A stretch of DNA of 64,000 bases from Escherichia coli (lineage in GTDB: Bacteria; Pseudomonadota; Gammaproteobacteria; Enterobacterales; Enterobacteriaceae). Positions within the stretch are counted from its first letter, which is position 1. Each line of letters opens with the position of its first letter. The stretch lies in assembly GCF_003018235.1 (NCBI RefSeq), contig NZ_CP027437.1; one strand, given 5' to 3'. Position numbers and translations under genes: made by a program. Below are positions 11,729 to 43,376 of the stretch, in pieces. The notes below the pieces were generated by a model. It did no database searches, was not told where the DNA came from, and was given only the letters and a program-made list of their open reading frames with translations.

Positions 11729-11804
11729 TGGTGGGTCGTGCAGGATTCGAACCTGCGACCAATTGATTAAAAGTCAACTGCTCTACCAACTGAGCTAACG
11801 ACCC
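11729..11804 (-). tRNA. tRNA-Lys (anticodon UUU), distal tandem copy
   Basis: 76-nt exact reverse complement of E. coli tRNA-Lys, ending CCA. Confidence 0.92.
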
Positions 11805-11837
11805 CTTGCGGGATTATGCTGCTTTAATCATTCAGGA

Positions 11838-11913
11838 TGGTGGGTCGTGCAGGATTCGAACCTGCGACCAATTGATTAAAAGTCAACTGCTCTACCAACT
11901 GAGCTAACGACCC
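11838..11913 (-). tRNA. lysQ: tRNA-Lys (UUU)
   Basis: Exact tRNA-Lys sequence; part of perfect 109-bp tandem unit. Confidence 0.9.
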
Positions 11914-11946
11914 CTTGCGGGATTATGCTGCTTTAATCATTCAGGA

Positions 11947-12022
11947 TGGTGGGTCGTGCAGGATTCGAACCTGCGACCAATTGATTAAAAGTCAACTGCT
12001 CTACCAACTGAGCTAACGACCC
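11947..12022 (-). tRNA. lysZ: tRNA-Lys (UUU)
   Basis: Exact tRNA-Lys sequence. Confidence 0.9.
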
Positions 12023-12070
12023 ATACGGGTGTTACCTGAAAGATTTCTACTCGGAACCAATCTTTAAAAT

Positions 12071-12141
12071 TGGTGGGTCGTGCAGGATGACTCGCTTCGC
12101 TCGCCCTTCGGGCCGTTGCTGGCGCAACGTTATCCTTCACG
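12071..12141 (-). repeat. tRNA-Lys 3'-end-derived fragment repeat, copy B
   Basis: Shares tRNA 3' end plus about 55 nt with copies A and C. Confidence 0.6.
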
Positions 12142-12168
12142 CTTAACATCTGAGTTTGATGTTAAAAT

Positions 12169-12244
12169 TGGTGGGTCGTGCAGGATTCGAACCTGCGACC
12201 AATTGATTAAAAGTCAACTGCTCTACCAACTGAGCTAACGACCC
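12169..12244 (-). tRNA. lysY: tRNA-Lys (UUU)
   Basis: Exact tRNA-Lys sequence. Confidence 0.9.
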
Positions 12245-12247
12245 GAG

Positions 12248-12323
12248 TGGTGGGTGATGACGGGATCGAACCGCCGACCCCCTCCTTGTAAGGGAGGTGC
12301 TCTCCCAGCTGAGCTAATCACCC
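12248..12323 (-). tRNA. valZ: tRNA-Val (UAC)
   Basis: Reverse complement of GGGTGATTAGCTCAGCTGGGAGAGCACCTCCCTTACAAGGAGGGGGTCGGCGGTTCGATCCCGTCATCACCCACCA. Confidence 0.92.
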
Positions 12324-12374
12324 GATACTGCGCTGGATACTACAAACTACTTCCACCGAACCCACCGTAATTAG

Positions 12375-12450
12375 TGGTGGGTCGTGCAGGATTCGAACCT
12401 GCGACCAATTGATTAAAAGTCAACTGCTCTACCAACTGAGCTAACGACCC
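12375..12450 (-). tRNA. lysW: tRNA-Lys (UUU)
   Basis: Exact tRNA-Lys sequence. Confidence 0.9.
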
Positions 12451-12452
12451 GG

Positions 12453-12528
12453 TGGTGGGTGATGACGGGATCGAACCGCCGACCCCCTCCTTGTAAGGGA
12501 GGTGCTCTCCCAGCTGAGCTAATCACCC
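12453..12528 (-). tRNA. valT: tRNA-Val (UAC)
   Basis: Exact tRNA-Val sequence. Confidence 0.92.
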
Positions 12529-12563
12529 GATACTACGCTGGATACTACAACTAACTATGTTAG

Positions 12564-12636
12564 TGGTGGGTCGTGCAGGATGACTCGACTTCGTCTCGCC
12601 CTTCGGACCGTTGCTGACGCAACGTTATCCTTCACG
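12564..12636 (-). repeat. tRNA-Lys 3'-end-derived fragment repeat, copy C
   Basis: As copies A/B with a few substitutions. Confidence 0.6.
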
Positions 12637-12663
12637 TTTTACTACCGCTTCCACCTTAGCGAT

Positions 12664-12739
12664 TGGTGGGTCGTGCAGGATTCGAACCTGCGACCAATTG
12701 ATTAAAAGTCAACTGCTCTACCAACTGAGCTAACGACCC
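12664..12739 (-). tRNA. lysT: tRNA-Lys (UUU), promoter-proximal
   Basis: Exact tRNA-Lys sequence; first gene of array. Confidence 0.92.
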
Positions 12740-12903
12740 ACTTTTTCGTTGCTTTCGGTTTGTTTGATATCCCGTGGCAACGGCGGCATATATTACTGAT
12801 TTCAGACTTGAGCGCAACAAAAATTTCGATGTAGATCACTCAACTGCTTATGATTCGCACGACACGACCAGAAATAATGCGACTTCTGGTCGTGTGTTAT
12901 GCA

Positions 12904-34712: not shown

Positions 34713-35616
34713 ACATCTCCTGCGGTACAACCGATTTCGCCAGCAACCATTCACGAAATTGCTGCAAGTGCGGTGAGTCAGACTTCTCTTCCTGCCACGT
34801 CATAATAAAACGATTACCGGTACGAATAGGCACATCACAGGGGATCACCATATCGCCACTATCCAAATCATGTTGAATAGCGAAACGTGGTAACAGCGCC
34901 ACGCCGAGATTAGAGCGCACGGCGGCAATCAGCATTGAAAGCAAATCGAAACGTGGTCCGTTGTTGACCAGCGGACTGCTAACGCCAGATAAGGCAAACC
35001 ACTCTTCCCAGCCAGTAATACGGGTACTTTGATGCAGAAGTGGTAACTCTGTAAGCAGTTCTGCCACTGACAGTTTTTGATCGGACATTGCAAGCAAACT
35101 GCCGCTGCATACCGGCAAAATCTCCTCATCAAAGAGATATTCTACTTCCGCCCAGGGCGCGCAAAAATTTTCGCGCATAATGACAGCATCGTACTCCCGA
35201 TTAAGAAAATCGCCGTTATTAGCTAAAGAGTGAATATTAACAATAATATCGGGATGTAACTTTGTGAATTCATGTAAATTTGGGATTAACCAGTGGGTAC
35301 TAAACGTAGGATTCACGGCAAGTTCAATAACCTGAACCGTAGGCTGCCAGGTCATAATGGTATTGGTATCGCGTTCCAGCTTATTTAATGTTTCTTTTAC
35401 TATCCCCAGGTAATACTTCCCTGCATCATTAAGAAAAATACGTTTTTTAGAGTGTGAAAATAACGGAGTATGTAAAAATTCCTCCAGCGCACTCACTTGT
35501 CTGAATACTGCACTTTGGGTCAACGCTAACTCCTCTGCCGCTTTGGTATAACTTTCATGACGTGCGACGACCTCAAAAGTCACCAGCAGCTCCGTTTTAG
35601 GTATTTTTCCTCGCAT
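34711..35616 (-). CDS. LysR-family transcriptional regulator
   Basis: 301 aa; N-terminal HTH (TKAAEELALTQSAVFRQVSALE) and LysR substrate-binding domain. Confidence 0.85.
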   Translation of the reverse strand: MRGKIPKTELLVTFEVVARHESYTKAAEELALTQSAVFRQVSALEEFLHTPLFSHSKKRIFLNDAGKYYLGIVKETLNKLERDTNTIMTWQPTVQVIELAVNPTFSTHWLIPNLHEFTKLHPDIIVNIHSLANNGDFLNREYDAVIMRENFCAPWAEVEYLFDEEILPVCSGSLLAMSDQKLSVAELLTELPLLHQSTRITGWEEWFALSGVSSPLVNNGPRFDLLSMLIAAVRSNLGVALLPRFAIQHDLDSGDMVIPCDVPIRTGNRFIMTWQEEKSDSPHLQQFREWLLAKSVVPQEM

Positions 35617-36182
35617 AATGCCGTCCCTTAAAAATAGTTTAAACCATCAAAAATACATTACTTATTACGAAGTAATGGTAACCAAAGCAGCAATAAATAA
35701 TTTATAAGAATCATGATTGACATTTATAACCCAGTAAGCCTGGCGTGACAAATATCTTAATCAGATAATAATAATCCGAAAAGCACAGCGCCTTTCGAAT
35801 TATCCGGAATCACATTAAGTGAAAATTATTAAATTGATATCATTTATCATATCTGTGGATATTATGATAAACAATCAACAAAGATTTTATTTTTGATTTA
35901 TAGCATATCCCTCTAAGAATTTTTGCGATGCTGCAATATCCGGGGTAAAGACCCGATCCTGGCTGACAAATGGCACGACTTGACGATAAGCGGTGAACAT
36001 CGCTTTTGTTGATTTACTTAACGCTACGGTCAAACGCTGGGAAGCCAGTGCATCAGGTAACGATTCGAAATTCGCCGTCGTTCTTATTCGTGGCTTGCGG
36101 TCGGTTGCGGCAATCCACAGTGGCTGTGGTCATGCAGTCAAGCCAGCGGTCAGATTTCGACCGTGGTTAACATTTAAGGCAT

Positions 36183-36281
36183 AAAAAAGGCCATCATACG
36201 ATGGCCAACCATGTCGAAACCGACAGCCCTTCGCCATTCCTGTAGAGGGAAGCGGCGAGGGCTATTTCTTATTACAGATAT
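36183..36281 (-). ncRNA. sdhX: probable 3'-UTR-derived sRNA SdhX (RybD) with intrinsic terminator
   Basis: Region directly after sucD stop ends in hairpin GGCCATCGTATGATGGCC plus U-run on minus strand; identity by position, not sequence match. Confidence 0.45.
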
Positions 36282-37151
36282 TTATTTCAGAACAGTTTTC
36301 AGTGCTTCACCGATATCCGCCAGGCTGCGAACGGTTTTCACGCCTGCGGCTTCCAGAGCAGCGAATTTCTCATCCGCAGTCCCTTTACCACCGGCAATGA
36401 TGGCACCCGCGTGGCCCATACGTTTGCCTTTCGGCGCAGTCACACCAGCGATGTAACCCACAACAGGCTTGGTAACGTGCTCTTTGATGTACGCAGCCGC
36501 TTCTTCTTCAGCGCTACCGCCGATCTCACCGATCATCACGATCGCTTCGGTCTGCGGATCTTTTTCGAACATTTCGAGGATGTCGATAAAGTTAGAGCCA
36601 GGGATCGGGTCGCCGCCGATACCGACACAGGTCGACTGACCGAAACCGTAATCCGTGGTCTGTTTAACCGCTTCATAGGTCAGTGTACCGGAACGGGAAA
36701 CGATACCCACTTTACCCGGTTTGTGAATGTGACCAGGCTGGATACCGATTTTGCATTCACCCGGAGTGATAACGCCTGGGCAGTTCGGGCCGATCATACG
36801 AACGCCAGCTTCGTCCAGTTTCACTTTCACAGTCAGCATATCCAGCGTCGGGATGCCTTCAGTGATGGTGATAATCAGTTTGATGCCTGCATCAATAGCT
36901 TCCAGAATGGAGTCTTTGCAGAACGGTGCTGGTACGTAGATAACAGAAGCGGTAGCGCCAGTAGCAGCAACAGCTTCACGCACGGTGTTGAACACCGGCA
37001 GGCCGAGGTGGGTGGTGCCGCCTTTACCTGGGGTTACGCCGCCAACCATTTTAGTGCCGTATGCAATGGCCTGTTCTGAGTGGAAAGTCCCCTGGCTACC
37101 GGTAAAGCCCTGGCAGATAACCTTGGTGTTTTTATCAATTAAAATGGACAT
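36282..37151 (-). CDS. sucD: succinyl-CoA synthetase alpha subunit
   Basis: 289 aa; CoA-binding motifs. Confidence 0.95.
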
Positions 37152-38317
37152 TATTTCCCCTCCACTGCGGCAACAACCTGCTGAGCTGCATCCGTCAGAC
37201 CTTTTGCTGCAATAATATTCAGGCCGCTGTCAGCCAGTTTCTTCGCGCCGAGTTCGGCGTTGTTACCTTCCAGACGTACCACGACCGGTACGTTAACACC
37301 CACTTCCGCTACCGCGCCGATGATACCGTCAGCGATCAGGTCGCAACGAACGATACCGCCGAAGATGTTAACCAGAACGGCTTTCACTTTGTCGTCAGAG
37401 AGGATGATTTTGAACGCTTCGGTTACACGTTCTTTGGTTGCGCCGCCGCCAACGTCAAGGAAGTTAGCTGGTTCGCCGCCGTGCAGTTTAACGATGTCCA
37501 TCGTACCCATCGCCAGACCTGCGCCGTTAACCATACAACCGATGTTACCGTCCAGCGCAACGTAGTTCAGTTCCCACTGTGCAGCCTGTGCTTCACGTGG
37601 ATCTTCCTGCGACTGGTCACGCATTTCGCGCAGATCAGGCTGGCGGAACAGTGCGTTGCCATCAGCGCCCAGTTTGCCGTCGAGGCAAATCAGATCGCCC
37701 TGTTTGGTGATGACCAGCGGGTTGATTTCGATCAGCGCCAGGTCGCGCTCCAGGAAAATGGTCGCCAGGCCCATGAAGATTTTGGTGAACTGCTGAACCA
37801 GTTTACCTTCCAGACCCAGTTTGAACGCCAGCTCGCGTCCCTGATACGGCATCGGGCCAGTCAGCGGATCAAGCGCAACTTTGTGGATCAGGTGCGGAGT
37901 TTCTTCCGCCACTTTTTCGATTTCCACGCCGCCTTCGGTGGAGGCCATAAAGACCACACGACGGGAACTACGGTCAACAACGGCACCGAGATACAGCTCT
38001 TTAGCGATATCGGTCGCTGCTTCAACCAGAATCTGGTTAACCGGTTGGCCATTGGCATCTGTTTGATACGTTACCAGACGCTTGCCCAGCCAGTTTTCTG
38101 CAAAAGCACGGATGTCTTCTTTGCTGTTTACAACTTTCACACCGCCCGCTTTACCGCGGCCACCAGCGTGAACCTGACATTTCACTACCCACGGACCGGC
38201 ACCGATTTTTGAAGCGGCTTCTTCTGCTTCGCGCGGAGTAGTACAGGCATAACCCACCGGTGCTGGTAAGCCATAGCGGGCAAAAAGTTGTTTTGCCTGA
38301 TATTCATGTAAGTTCAT
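37151..38317 (-). CDS. sucC: succinyl-CoA synthetase beta subunit
   Basis: 388 aa; ATP-grasp. Confidence 0.95.
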
Positions 38318-38410
38318 GTGTTCTGTCCATCCTTCAGTAATCGTTATCTTTTAAACCGTAGACCGACACCCTATCCACGTCGGTCTACAGTGCAGGTGAA
38401 GCTTAAACTA

Positions 38411-39628
38411 CTACACGTCCAGCAGCAGACGCGTCGGATCTTCCAGCAACTCTTTGATCGTTACCAGGAAGCCCACGGATTCGCGACCATCGATCAGACG
38501 GTGATCGTAGGACAGCGCCAGGTACATCATCGGCAGGATCTCAACCTGACCATTCACCGCCATCGGACGATCTTTGATAGCGTGCATACCCAGAATTGCG
38601 CTCTGCGGCGGGTTGATGATCGGCGTAGACATCAGGGAACCGAACACACCACCGTTGGTGATGGTGAAGTTACCACCGGTCAGATCTTCAACCGTCAGCT
38701 TGCCGTCACGGCCTTTAACTGCCAGCTCTTTGATTTTCTTCTCGATGTCTGCCATGCCTAGGGTATCGACATCACGCAGTACCGGCGTCACCAGGCCGCG
38801 CGGCGTAGAAACCGCCATGCTGACGTCGAAATAGTTGTGGTAAACCACATCATCGCCGTCGATAGACGCGTTCACTTCCGGGTAACGTTTCAGGGCTTCA
38901 ACCACCGCTTTCACGTAGAAGGACATAAAGCCCAGACGAATACCGTGACGTTTTTCAAACGCTTCACCGTACTGCTTACGCAGATCCATAATCGGCTTCA
39001 TGTTGACTTCGTTGAACGTGGTCAGCATAGCGGTGGAGTTTTTCGCTTCCAGCAGACGCTCTGCCACACGCTTACGCAGGCGAGTCATCGGCACACGTTT
39101 TTCGCTACGTGCAGCCAGAGCCGGTTGCGCCGCCGGAGCAGCCGCTGCCGGAGCAGACTCTTTCGCCGGGGCTTTCGCCAGATGTTTTTCCACATCTTCA
39201 CGAGTCAGACGACCACCCACACCGGTGCCTTTAATGGCGCTGGCGTCGAGGTTGTGTTCAGCCAGCAGGCGACGGATCGCCGGGCTTAACGCATCGTTGT
39301 TTTGCTCTTCCAGAGACGCCTGCTGGCGTTGCGCCGGAGTGGACGCTTTCTCTTCAGATTTGGCGCTGGTTTCTTTACCGGCGCTGTTGCCTTCACGCAG
39401 GCGACCAAGGATCTGACGAGACGTTACCGTTGTACCTTCATCTTCCAGAACCGCATCCAGAATGCCGTCTGCTGATGCCGGTACTTCCAGTACCACTTTG
39501 TCAGTTTCGATTTCTACCAGCACTTCATCACGTACGACTGCGTCGCCGGGTTTTTTATGCCAGGTTGCGACGGTGGCATCGGCTACGGATTCAGGCAGGT
39601 CAGGGACCAGAATATCTACGCTACTCAT
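38411..39628 (-). CDS. sucB: 2-oxoglutarate dehydrogenase E2 (dihydrolipoyl succinyltransferase)
   Basis: 405 aa; lipoyl domain, Ala/Pro linker, catalytic DHRLIDG motif. Confidence 0.95.
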
Positions 39629-39642
39629 TGTGTATCCTTTAT

Positions 39643-42444
39643 TTATTCGACGTTCAGCGCGTCATTAACCAGATCTTGTTGCTGTTTCTGGTGAACGGAC
39701 ATATACCCTACCGCCGGAGAGGCGGAGGCCGGGCGGCCTGCATAACGCAGAGAAGCCCCAAACGGAATCACTTCACGGAAATGATGCTGGCTGCAGTACC
39801 ATGCGCCCTGGTTGAGCGGCTCTTCCTGGCACCAGACAAAATCCTTGACGTGAGCAAACTGCTGCAACACTTCCTGCATCGCTTTATGCGGGAACGGGTA
39901 GAGTTGCTCGATACGCACAATGGCGACATCGTGTTGATTGTTCTTACGACGCTGTTCCAGCAGGTCGTAATAAACCTTACCAGAACACATCACTACACGC
40001 TTAACGCCCTTCGGATCAAGCTCGTCGATTTCACCGATGGCTGGCAGGAAGGTGCCGTTCGCCAGTTCTTCGAGGCTGGAAACCGCCAGCGGATGACGCA
40101 GCAGGGATTTCGGCGACATCACGACCAGCGGACGACGCATCCCGCGCAGCGCCTGACGACGCAGCATGTGGTAAACCTGTGCCGGGGTAGAAGGTACGCA
40201 AACCTGCATGTTTTGCTCAGCACAAAGTTGCAGATAACGTTCCAGACGCGCGGAGGAGTGCTCCGGCCCCTGCCCTTCGTAACCGTGCGGCAGCAACATC
40301 ACCAGACCACACATCCGGCCCCATTTCTGTTCGCCAGAGGAGATGAACTGGTCGATAACCACCTGAGCACCGTTAGCGAAGTCACCGAACTGCGCTTCCC
40401 AGATAGTCAGAGTGCGTGGTTCTGCGGTGGCATAACCATATTCAAACGCCAGCACTGCTTCTTCAGACAGTACGGAGTCCCAGACACGGAACGCGCCCTG
40501 GCCGTTATGGATGTGTTGCAGCGGCGTGTAAGTGGAACCGTTAGACTGGTTGTGGATCACCGCGTGGCGGTGGAAGAAGGTACCGCGACCGGAGTCTTCA
40601 CCCGACAGGCGAACCGGAATGCCTTCGTCAACCAGCGTGGCGTAAGCGAGGTTTTCCGCGCCGCCCCAGTCGAACAGTTTCTCACCAGCTGCCATCGCCT
40701 GGCGATCGCCATAAATCTTGGCAACGCGAGACTGCATTTCAACTGCTTCCGGCACCGTGCTGATGCGTTTAGCCAGTTCCTGCAGGCGCTTCATCTCAAC
40801 TTTGTTCGGGTACTCTTCGTCCCATTCGTGGTTGAGGTACGGCGACCAGGTGAAAGAGTGCATGTTCATCGGACGCCACTCTGCTACCACGCAATCGCCA
40901 GCATCCAGCGCATCGCGGTACAGGTTAACCATCTCGGTGGCATCTTCCAGCGTCGCGACTTTTTCCTGCTCCAGCTTGTCAGCGTAGATTTTGCGCGGCG
41001 TCGGATGTTTTTTGATTTTCTGATACATCAGCGGCTGGGTTGCGCTCGGCTCGTCGGCTTCGTTGTGGCCGTGACGGCGGTAGCATACCAGGTCGATAAA
41101 GACATCACGTTTAAAGGTGTTACGGAAATCGAGCGCCAGACGGGTCACAAAGGCAACGGCTTCCGGATCGTCCGCGTTAACGTGGAAAATCGGGGCCTGA
41201 ACCATCTTACCGATATCAGTACAGTACGGTGTAGAACGAGCATCCAGCGGATTAGAGGTGGTGAAGCCAACCTGGTTGTTGATAACGATACGTACCGTAC
41301 CGCCAACTTCATAACCACGCGCTTTCGACATGTTCAGGGTTTCCTGAACCACGCCCTGCCCGGTCACTGCGGCGTCACCGTGGATGGTAATTGGCAGCAC
41401 TTTGTTGCTGCTCGGCTCATCAAGTCTGTCCAGACGGGCACGAACAGAACCGATAACTACCGGGCTGACAATCTCAAGGTGAGACGGGTTAAACGCCAGC
41501 GCCAGGTGCACCAGGCCGCCATCGGTCTGGAAGTCAGACGAGAAGCCCATGTGGTATTTCACGTCGCCTGTGCCAAGGTGTTCTTTATGTTTACCGGCGA
41601 ACTCGTCGAACAAGTCTTGCGGTTTTTTACCCAGCACGTTCACCAACACGTTCAGACGACCACGGTGCGCCATTCCGAGAACCACTTCGCGGGTGCCGCT
41701 GTTGCCAGCGTGGCGGATCATCTCTTTAAGCATCGGGATTAACGCGTCACCGCCTTCCAGCGAGAAGCGTTTTGCGCCAGGGAATTTTGCGCCGAGGTAA
41801 CGTTCAAGGCCTTCAGCGGCGGTCAGTTCGCTTAAGAAGCGTTTTTTCTCTTCGCTATTGAAAGTCGCGCGACCAGACTCGATACGCTGTTGGATCCAGC
41901 GTTTTTCTTCAGTGCTGGTAATGTGCATATACTCGGCACCAATCGGGCCGCAGTAGGTTTGCTTGAGGGCTTCCAGCAGCTCGCCGAGTTTCATGGTTTC
42001 TTTGCCGCTGGCAAATGAACCGACGTTGAAGGTCTCCTGGAAGTCTGCTTCGGTCAGATCGTGGAAAGACGGATCCAGATCGGCCACTTTATCTTGCTGC
42101 CACAGTCCCAGCGGATCGAGATTCGCATGCTGGTGACCACGGAAGCGGTATGCGTTAATGAGCTGCAGGACTTTAACCTGCTTCACATTGGTGTCAGGGT
42201 CGGAGATCGTTGAAGAGTAACGTGAAGCGTCTTTCGCCAGGCGGCGGAAATATTCACGCGTTTGAGAGTGGAATTGATCCGGTTTGACTCCCGTACCAGG
42301 TAACTGCTGGAACGTCGAACGCCAGTTAGCGTCAACCGAGTCAGGATCGGTTAAGAAGTCTTCATAGAGCTGTTCTATCCAGCTCTGGTTTGCGCCAGAG
42401 AGGTAAGAAGAGTCCAACCAGGCTTTCAAAGCGCTGTTCTGCAT
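39643..42444 (-). CDS. sucA: 2-oxoglutarate dehydrogenase E1 component
   Basis: 933 aa. Confidence 0.95.
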
Positions 42445-42562
42445 CGTGATCCCTTAAGCATCTTTTTTATGCTTACTTCGCCGTGGATACTACCACGCAC
42501 AGTGATGTGCGTGCCGGGGTTCACTTGCGAGCTCTTGTCTACGTAGTGGCTCGCGAAGGAAC

Positions 42563-42632
42563 CTTTAAAAACTGTCTTAGTGTCAGGGGCAGTTTTTAAA
42601 GATTTCCTGAATAGCCGGGGGATTTCCCCGGC
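42563..42632. other. two perfect palindromes in sdhB–sucA intergenic region
   Basis: CTTTAAAAACTG...CAGTTTTTAAAG (12-bp arms) and GCCGGGG(gattt)CCCCGGC. Confidence 0.5.
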
Positions 42633-42644
42633 ATCAACATTTAA

Positions 42645-43361
42645 TTACGCATTACGTTGCAACAACATCGACTTGATATGGCCGATGGCGCGCGTCGGGT
42701 TCAGTCCCTTCGGACATACACTGACGCAGTTCATGATGCTGTGACAGCGGAATACGCTGAATGCATCGCTCAAACCGTCGAGGCGGCTGTCAGTCTCGGT
42801 ATCACGGCTATCGATCAGGAAACGATATGCCGCTAACAAGCCTGCCGGGCCGATAAACTTATCGGGATTCCACCAGAAAGACGGACAAGAGGTTGAACAA
42901 CATGCGCAGAGAATACATTCATACAGCCCGTCGAGTTTTTCGCGCTGCTCTGGCATCTGTAAATGCTCGCGAGCTGGCGGATTTTGTCCATTATTCAACA
43001 GGTAAGGCTTAATTTTCTCATATTGCGCATAGAATTGTCCCATGTCTACCACCAAATCGCGGATCACCGGTAAACCTGGCAGCGGGCGAATCACAATCTT
43101 CTTGCCCGGCTGGTTGAGTGCCGAAATCGGGGTAATACAGGCCAGACCATTCTTGCCGTTCATGTTCAGACCGTCGGAACCGCACACACCTTCACGGCAG
43201 GAGCGACGGAACGACAGGCTGGGATCTTTCTCTTTCAGCTGGATAAGCGCATCCAGCAGCATCATGTCACGACCTTCTTCCGCTTCCAGGGTGTAATCCT
43301 GCATACGCGGAGCATCATCAACATCCGGGTTATAGCGATAAATTGAAAACTCGAGTCTCAT
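42645..43361 (-). CDS. sdhB: succinate dehydrogenase iron-sulfur subunit
   Basis: 238 aa; Cys clusters. Confidence 0.95.
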   Translation of the reverse strand: MRLEFSIYRYNPDVDDAPRMQDYTLEAEEGRDMMLLDALIQLKEKDPSLSFRRSCREGVCGSDGLNMNGKNGLACITPISALNQPGKKIVIRPLPGLPVIRDLVVDMGQFYAQYEKIKPYLLNNGQNPPAREHLQMPEQREKLDGLYECILCACCSTSCPSFWWNPDKFIGPAGLLAAYRFLIDSRDTETDSRLDGLSDAFSVFRCHSIMNCVSVCPKGLNPTRAIGHIKSMLLQRNA

Positions 43362-43376
43362 TTTCCTGTCTCCGCA

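Follow-up and report, generated by a model that had tools for sequence, protein, structure and literature searches.

RNase III leader helices, such as those of rnc, pnp, the adhE 5′ UTR, lambda cIII and T7 R1.1, are found in leaders or intercistronic regions of transcripts that are processed by RNase III. In adhE and cIII, cleavage opens an occluded ribosome-binding site. REPs are a second type of intercistronic element. These imperfect palindromes of ~35 nt are mobile and dispersed, form GC-rich stem-loops that lack a U-tract, and are present in intercistronic spacers such as malE-malF and, as a BIME, in the sdhB-sucA spacer of K-12. Newbury and colleagues are said to have found in 1987 that REP hairpins stabilize upstream mRNA against 3′ exonucleases. 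Leaky terminators located between the two halves of an operon constitute a third type. Finally, the Rfam sucA and sucA-II motifs are structured sucA leaders in Burkholderiales and Pseudomonas.

The sdhCDAB-sucABCD operon supplies three consecutive enzymes of the TCA cycle. The spacer between sdhB and sucA is where sdh and suc expression are uncoupled. An internal terminator, an internal promoter, RNase III, Hfq and the sRNA GlnZ all contribute to this. The K-12 operon contains an internal terminator with read-through together with a secondary promoter (PMC4161252). In the accounts of Cunningham & Guest 1998 that are given in passages of later papers, the ~10-kb read-through mRNA is cut at three RNase III sites in the spacer (via PMC5371410, PMC6393394 and PMC9731577), and the spacer regulates sucA (PMC5371410 and PMC9731577, citing Cunningham & Guest 1998). 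More recent work describes a "relatively long stem-loop" in the sucA 5′ UTR that is recognized by RNase III, places the RNase III sites upstream of the region targeted by GlnZ, and reports that SucA drops in an rnc14 mutant while SucB does not (PMC9731577). The sucA gene has been listed as positively regulated by RNase III through a mechanism that was not elucidated (PMC9032294).

The sdhB-sucA spacer described here lies in the window, the whole 64,000-nucleotide stretch of Escherichia coli DNA that was analyzed. It contains an AT-rich and a GC-rich palindrome, both of which form hairpins in the RNA, within the untranslated spacer of the polycistronic sdhCDAB-sucABCD mRNA. The palindromes are uncatalogued examples of already known element types, and they differ sharply from one another: the first is a covarying helix conserved across an entire order, whereas the second is a non-K-12 allele of a REP-prone slot. 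The overall picture is one of ordinary post-transcriptional operon architecture, which refines a known regulatory region and overturns nothing. An earlier note on this DNA, in which both palindromes were pointed out, was broadly right and is partly supported by these results, but missed that the two are very different things.

Layout of the sdhB-sucA spacer

The open reading frames of sdhB (42645–43361) and sucA (39643–42444), which are named after the annotation of 100%-identical E. coli genomes, are both on the minus strand of the window. Consequently, the 200-nt spacer between them (42445–42644) is read from right to left, and all of the features described below are on the minus strand. The order of elements in the mRNA is the UAA stop codon of sdhB (42645–42647, defined by the end of the open reading frame and the sdhB annotation in the identical genomes), 12 nt, the GC hairpin, 5 nt, the AT-rich helix designated P1, three further hairpins, the Shine-Dalgarno sequence, and the AUG codon of sucA. 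A 401-nt query across both palindromes matches 5425 of the 5426 complete E. coli genomes, with 100% identity in strains N3 and ST2747.

Both palindromes exceed what chance would give. Perfect inverted repeats of at least 12 bp with a spacer of 3–30 nt are found at 4 loci in the window, compared to 0.1 expected from dinucleotide shuffles, and all-GC 7-bp stems are found 4 times compared to 0.39 expected from shuffles. The 86-nt RNA containing both palindromes has a predicted folding energy of -34.4 kcal/mol (z = -5.1), a stability reached by none of 200 shuffles. The fold of the whole 200-nt spacer has a z of -5.5, while the corresponding value for the K-12 spacer is -7.6. The arms of the AT-rich repeat, CTTTAAAAACTG (42563–42574) and CAGTTTTTAAAG (42590–42601), are perfect over 12 bp and located where the earlier note had placed them; they are, however, separated by 15 nt and not by the 16 nt that had been claimed. 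The GC hairpin GCCGGGG/CCCCGGC was also found just after the sdhB stop, as described (42614–42632, with a 5-nt loop).

The description of both palindromes as lacking a U-run, and as such not being strong terminators, agrees with a scan of both strands of 42300–42800, in which there are 0 terminator-like and 0 sigma-70-like consensus sites. A covariance-model search of 35000–47000 against Rfam (cmscan) returned no match even at E ≤ 1, and assignment of the palindromes to a known Rfam RNA family was therefore rejected. Identification as dispersed repeats was also rejected, as the AT-rich helix and the GC hairpin are each single-copy.

Helix P1 and RNase III

The complementarity of the AT-rich repeat extends to 15 positions with one mismatch (42560–42574/42590–42604), and in RNA form the repeat is an 18-bp helix at 42557–42608 that contains one bulged A (18–19 bp overall). 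P1 is made up of a 5′ arm, AGGAAAUCUUUAAAAACUG (42608–42590), a 15-nt apical loop (42589–42575), and a 3′ arm, CAGUUUUUAAAGGUUCCU (42574–42557). The arms form 18 standard or wobble pairs around the single bulge, and 2 more pairs follow past an internal loop; the size quoted for RNase III is 22 nt. P1 is present in the minimum-energy folds of the E. coli spacer from both the window and K-12, and it is the sole helix of more than 8 bp in the window allele, and the only one there of a length that RNase III could use.

In 5425 of the 5426 complete E. coli genomes, P1 occurs as a single copy with almost no sequence variation, and identity is at least 99% in 4262 of them. Conservation was also probed using 29 further spacers; the sample was drawn from one contig scan and contains neither Salmonella nor Klebsiella pneumoniae. 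In the minimum-energy folds of almost all of these spacers (26 Enterobacterales species, K-12, and E. coli SA186), a 20-nt stretch that has GGUUCC at its end is paired with GGAAAYCUYUAAAAAC located farther upstream. The apical loop ranges from ~1 to 137 nt among species, the longer loops containing ERIC-like and other insertions, and the pairing holds despite this range; the loop itself is dispensable. In a MAFFT alignment of 26 distinct arm pairs, for which the arm windows were picked with the aid of the folds, 91.7% of cells form standard pairs and 10 of the 18 pairs exhibit compensatory double changes. Examples of arms related by compensatory change include those of Yersinia (CUCUAAAAAC/GUUUUUAGAG), Klebsiella sp. 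(UUUGAAAGCUG/CAGUUUUCAAA), and Erwinia (CCUGGCAAGAAA/UUUCUUGCCAGG). The observed value was reached by 0 of 500 shuffles on any of five measures, and pairing falls to 36–69% when the arms are slid to other registers. Furthermore, RNAalifold analysis of independently aligned whole leaders identifies the same 19-bp helix as the sole cross-family consensus.

As judged from these comparisons, the covariation shows that P1 has been kept by selection on base pairing across Enterobacterales. P1 is absent from the Vibrio, Aeromonas, and Alteromonadales spacers that were compared as outgroups, indicating that it is an Enterobacterales feature. The GGUUCC sequence in the 3′ arm is invariant in all 26 sequences; this invariance exceeds the needs of pairing and hints at an additional role.

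ERIC-like elements (core CCCAGGAGC...GTGACTGGGG) have inserted into the loop of P1 in Enterobacter, Phytobacter, and Pluralibacter, where the base of P1 is untouched. It appears that small palindromic repeats can land at the apex of the helix and be tolerated there. In Serratia, ERIC-like elements are found farther downstream, between P2 and the GAACC element described below.

The perfect 12-bp palindrome formed by the AT-rich sequence could in principle be a protein site at the DNA level, a type of role that the earlier note had also raised; the candidates are IHF and a dimeric transcription factor bound to AT-rich half-sites. Cunningham and Guest are said to have described, in 1998, an internal suc promoter that is repressed by IHF somewhere in the spacer. 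However, the distance between the half-sites varies across species over the full range of loop lengths given above, while complementarity is kept by compensatory changes such as those in Erwinia. The variable spacing and the turnover of arm sequence exclude a dimeric protein operator. Additionally, allowing at most 1 mismatch, the IHF consensus WATCAANNNNTTR has no match in 42445–42644, the nearest match being located inside sdhB (42666–42678), and the scan of 42300–42800 contains no sigma-70-like promoter consensus. Papers on Nac and on IHF in UPEC give no site positions. Taken together, a protein-binding role for the palindromes is considered very improbable.

It has also to be considered that the structures have no specific processing role, and that they instead fold the spacer against Rho loading and polarity on sucABCD and insulate the operon from insertions. 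Such a function would be consistent with the unusually high degree of structure reflected in the z values of the window and K-12 spacers, with the 200–660-nt spacers of relatives being filled with hairpins, REPs, and ERIC-like elements, and with the tolerance of the P1 loop for large insertions. A generic need for structure would not, however, fix one helix with an invariant GGUUCC and arms that hardly vary throughout the order amid turnover of the surrounding sequence, and it leaves the published RNase III dependence of SucA levels unexplained. This explanation is therefore regarded as unlikely.

P1 lies upstream of the GlnZ target (42480–42487), as do the RNase III sites according to PMC9731577. 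Based on this position, on P1 being the sole long helix in the allele, and on the literature on the spacer, P1 is assigned, with moderate confidence, as a probable RNase III processing helix. Similar to the known RNase III leader helices, P1 occupies a leader or intercistronic position in a transcript processed by RNase III; it is ~18–19 bp in length and largely AU, and the protein encoded downstream responds to rnc. RNase III substrates are usually quoted at roughly 20–22 bp, which places P1 (18 bp and a bulge) at the short end. Unlike the known helices, P1 is a candidate site, the Shine-Dalgarno sequence lies outside of the helix, and the apex tolerates insertions of more than 100 nt.

In the proposed mechanism, RNase III would cut P1 as a double-strand substrate. 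This cleavage would divide the ~10-kb mRNA into an sdh half and a suc half, and would give the sucABCD mRNA a defined, processed 5′ leader that tunes the output of SucA. The assignment narrows an RNase III-sized element to one covarying helix, which offers a precise mutational target for understanding how RNase III raises SucA.

RNase III cleavage of the spacer has also been probed transcriptome-wide in K-12, where the ratio of rnc to WT RNA-seq reads has a peak at 758515 (Gordon 2017, in which this one coordinate is given). This coordinate maps to the apex of REP3, 27–33 nt upstream of P1 and midway between the REP1/REP2 duplex and P1. In K-12 coordinates, P1 occupies 758544–758595 and the REPs 758411–758532. 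The peak itself is not within P1; it fits cuts on both sides and fits equally well a cut in REP3. In vitro, RNase III cleaves REP RNA. The RNase III sites were mapped in K-12, and the REP1/REP2 duplex and REP3 hairpin of that strain are alternative or additional RNase III substrates.

Downstream leader elements and sucA translation

The region between P1 and sucA contains several additional elements. Directly 3′ of P1 is the P2 hairpin (GCGAGC...GCUCGC; 42527–42554), which is supported by an inverted repeat and by folding. In E. albertii and in the E. coli strains SA186 and K56-43, it is replaced in a compensatory manner by GCGGAC/GUCCGC. P2 is followed by the conserved element GUGAACCCC (42516–42524), which is predicted to pair, without covariation, with either the sucA Shine-Dalgarno sequence or the GGUUCCUU portion of the P1 3′ arm. 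The P3 hairpin (42494–42513) is an inverted repeat composed of CACGCACA and UGUGCGUG with a 4-nt loop; the stem is kept in SA186 and E. albertii, where the loop is enlarged. Next is UCCACGGC (42480–42487), which is complementary to the seed of the GlnZ sRNA and is itself invariant in the Enterobacterales alignments. The GlnZ seed is UUGCCGUGGAAA, and its target site in the sucA 5′ UTR has been published (PMC9731577). The leader ends at 42442–42475 with P4 (UAAGCAU/AUGCUUA; 42455–42475), the Shine-Dalgarno sequence AAGGGA (42450–42455), and the sucA AUG (42442–42444), which are identified by the repeat, the open reading frame, and conservation. When whole leaders are compared across families by RNAalifold, only P1 is resolved and P2–P4 are misaligned between families; consequently, covariation for these hairpins is limited to the compensatory change in P2 within Escherichia.

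The leader resembles the Rfam sucA and sucA-II motifs in being a conserved structured RNA located immediately upstream of sucA, here in another proteobacterial lineage. The enterobacterial leader has no match with those motifs at E ≤ 1 and is not homologous to them, and it has known trans inputs in RNase III and GlnZ.

Two haplotypes of the sucA leader are present within E. coli, distinguished by the compensatory P2 swap and by the size of the P3 loop, which is enlarged in the divergent haplotype. This haplotype, a 93% identity class of 1117 genomes, was seen only with BIME alleles. A much reduced leader is that of Acerihabitans arboris, in which the spacer is only 68 nt and both the post-stop hairpin and P1–P3 have been lost. 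This species keeps only the GlnZ-site element CCACGGCGAA, P4, and the Shine-Dalgarno sequence, and provides a natural minimal leader.

The short invariant sequences GGUUCCUU, GUGAACCC, and AAGGGAUCAC (42557–42564, 42516–42524, and 42450–42457) are mutually complementary in alternative combinations. This complementarity is suggestive of a switch that works by refolding at the ribosome-binding site of sucA, with a predicted direction that varies by enterobacterial family. An alternative to be weighed is that P1 functions mainly as a translational switch at sucA, either instead of or besides serving as a cleavage site. In the off state of this model, intact P1 would lock GGUUCCUU and the conserved GUGAACCC would pair with the Shine-Dalgarno region GGGAUCAC. 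In the on state, the 5′ arm of P1 would be removed, through RNase III or an internal transcription start, GGUUCCUU would pair with AAG-UGAACC, and the Shine-Dalgarno sequence would open. Such a switch resembles adhE and cIII, where cleavage exposes the ribosome-binding site.

Folding calculations on the E. coli leader fit this model, as the mean unpaired probability of AGGGA is predicted to increase from 0.41 in the full-length RNA to 0.82 without the 5′ arm, and to return to 0.40 if GGUUCCUU is also removed. The predicted change is in the same direction in 11 of 11 Enterobacteriaceae spacers, and is strong in 6 of them. The switch would also match the rnc14 phenotype, in which SucA but not SucB falls (PMC9731577), as well as the positive regulation of sucA by RNase III (PMC9032294), and it would account for GGUUCC being unchanged in all 26 sequences. 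However, the evidence for the switch is entirely thermodynamic prediction, and covariation is not possible for it because all of the pairing partners are invariant. Opening is predicted in only 15 of 29 spacers and is reversed in Yersiniaceae, Pectobacteriaceae, and Morganellaceae (e.g., from 0.63 to 0.02 in Brenneria), while RNAalifold gives a different partner for the Shine-Dalgarno sequence, CCACGGC. A primarily translational role for P1 is thus possible but rather doubtful.

Direct pairing of GGUUCCUU with AAGGGAUC, the first idea for an anti-Shine-Dalgarno interaction, was rejected, with ~0 expected pairs in E. coli. The same pairing is predicted in Yersiniaceae and Pectobacteriaceae, indicating that the switch model is not uniform among families.

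In its most extended form, the model has P1 as the control helix of an uncatalogued, Enterobacterales-wide sucA leader composed of P1–P4 along with the invariant elements GGUUCCUU, GUGAACC, and CCACGGCGAA. Cleavage by RNase III would enable GGUUCCUU to capture the anti-Shine-Dalgarno sequence GUGAACC, and the translation of sucA would be turned on. This proposal, which is derived from predicted folds, is put forward tentatively and is not expected to be the most likely account. If true, the P1 switch would supply the mechanism so far missing for the published positive effect of RNase III that is specific to sucA, and the hairpin/BIME polymorphism located beside P1 could modulate the switch between strains.

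The GC hairpin and the polymorphic slot after sdhB

The GC hairpin (GCCGGGG-AAAUC-CCCCGGC) contains 7 G-C pairs between the arms at 42614–42620 and 42626–42632, and has a predicted stability of -14.8 to -16 kcal/mol. Compared to an intrinsic terminator, the GC-rich stem is present and the U-tract is absent; the stem is followed by the tail UAUUCAGG, and the hairpin fails the terminator scan of 42300–42800. Nearly all of the 29 Enterobacterales spacers possess a stable GC hairpin of unrelated sequence between the sdhB stop and P1, a few of which have a partial T-run. In Vibrio, Aeromonas, and Alteromonadales, a hairpin also follows the sdhB stop, often with a full T-run, and is then a canonical intrinsic terminator. 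Leaky terminators between operon halves have parallels in the outgroup hairpin with its T-run and in the internal terminator with read-through of K-12, from which the window hairpin differs in its tail and in failing the terminator scan. Based on these comparisons, the GC hairpin may be a degenerate descendant or an analogue of a terminator distal to sdhB.

The best reading of the GC hairpin is that it would serve as both a leaky attenuator and a 3′-exonuclease barrier for the sdhCDAB mRNA, which is consistent with the read-through terminator reported inside the K-12 operon (PMC4161252). Without a proper U-tract, the hairpin would act as a leaky attenuator. Its main function would be to block 3′-to-5′ exonucleases, shielding the sdhCDAB mRNA following a downstream end or cut. 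Similar to REPs, which stabilize upstream mRNA from intercistronic spacers, the hairpin is a GC-rich stem-loop that lies in such a spacer and lacks a U-tract. Unlike REPs, it is single-copy, has a stem of 7 bp as opposed to a ~35-nt imperfect palindrome, and is neither mobile nor dispersed.

The similarity to REPs extends to location, as the GC hairpin and the sdhB-sucA BIME of K-12 occupy exactly the same slot, bounded by the sdhB stop and by CAGGAAAUC, with which P1 starts. K-12 is identical to the window in alignment from CAGGAAAUC through the sucA AUG, while the 34 nt after the stop, which include the hairpin, are replaced in K-12 by ~130 nt with three REPs. The comparison with K-12 that the earlier note had recommended therefore has a divided outcome, with P1 conserved and nearly invariant, and the strain-polymorphic GC hairpin missing. 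The hairpin allele is found in 1760 of 5426 E. coli genomes (32%), in each of them as one copy located at the 3′ end of sdhB, and the 50-nt hairpin segment is single-copy, with no second copy in the window at ≤3 mismatches. Other alleles of the slot include four or six REPs in other E. coli and eight in E. albertii, and the sampled strains that lack the GC hairpin always carry REPs (3–8) in the same slot. In one strain, E. coli SK0832, the BIME slot of the sdhB-sucA spacer carries an inserted IS3-like element of the IS1397 family (locus 960–2308). IS1397 is specific for BIMEs, with which this insertion fits.

Membership of the GC hairpin in the REP/BIME family was considered and rejected, as the hairpin is single-copy and does not match K-12 REP sequence. 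Specifically, the 19-nt hairpin shows no alignment to the K-12 REPs GCCTGATAAGACGC...GCATCAGGC and GCCGGATGCGGCG...CTTATCCGGCCTAC. An orthologous hairpin, GUUGUUGCCGGGGAA-gcga-UUCCCCGGC, is found in the same place in Citrobacter sp. FP75, with a stem that is two bp longer and a different loop, and the GC hairpin is consequently taken to be the older, ancestral state. Two thirds of E. coli strains would then have exchanged the ancestral hairpin for BIME/REP arrays, which are known to do the job proposed for the hairpin. The same start, TAAACCCAG..CCTGATAAGACGC, is found in the BIME alleles of E. albertii and of two E. coli strains, SA186 and K56-43. Due to this shared start and to the Citrobacter-orthologous hairpin, both allele classes seem to be older than E. 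coli, and seem to have persisted or arrived via trans-species polymorphism or recombination.

The polymorphism of the slot also bears on whether the GC hairpin is a functionless, neutral filler that is palindromic by accident. The hairpin is missing from two thirds of E. coli strains, its stem is just 7 bp, and chance alone would give ~0.4 such stems per window, and one natural E. coli variant has a stem mismatch (a second variant has a 1-nt deletion in the loop). These observations, together with the lack of covariation within one lineage, are weak points for any assigned role. However, neutral filler would not be expected to be replaced consistently by REP hairpins in strains without it, nor to be accompanied by a stable post-sdhB hairpin of unrelated sequence in nearly every sampled relative, outgroups included. 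Additionally, the Citrobacter ortholog keeps the stem, extended by 2 bp, despite its different loop. The absence of any function for the hairpin is for these reasons thought to have little probability.

The function favored here for the GC hairpin is that of attenuator and exonuclease barrier. Together, P1 and the GC hairpin would determine how stable the sdh and suc halves of the mRNA are relative to each other, and hence the ratio in which they are expressed. The full explanation, in which P1 is an RNase III substrate and the GC hairpin is an attenuator and exonuclease barrier that jointly set the sdh/suc ratio, is considered reasonably likely. It is in keeping with the suggestion of the earlier note that the palindromes are RNA processing or stability elements affecting the balance of sdh and suc, for which the P1 covariation, the RNase III literature on the spacer, and the alternation of REPs, hairpins, and terminators in the slot provide comparative support. 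The hairpin allele is present in 32% of genomes, at the slot where the sampled genomes without it have REPs, and results obtained with K-12 on the 3′ end and stability of the sdh mRNA may thus not apply to a third of strains.

Additional features of the window were observed in the course of these searches. The IHF pattern search surfaced AATCAATTGGTCG as a repeated sequence, which belongs to an eight-tRNA cluster at 11729–12739 on the minus strand (six tRNA-Lys(UUU) and two tRNA-Val(UAC)). Three more perfect inverted repeats of at least 12 bp with short spacers are located at 12862–12895, 58377–58410, and 59996–60028, and the repeat at 59996 (GCCTGATAAAACGC...) looks REP-like.
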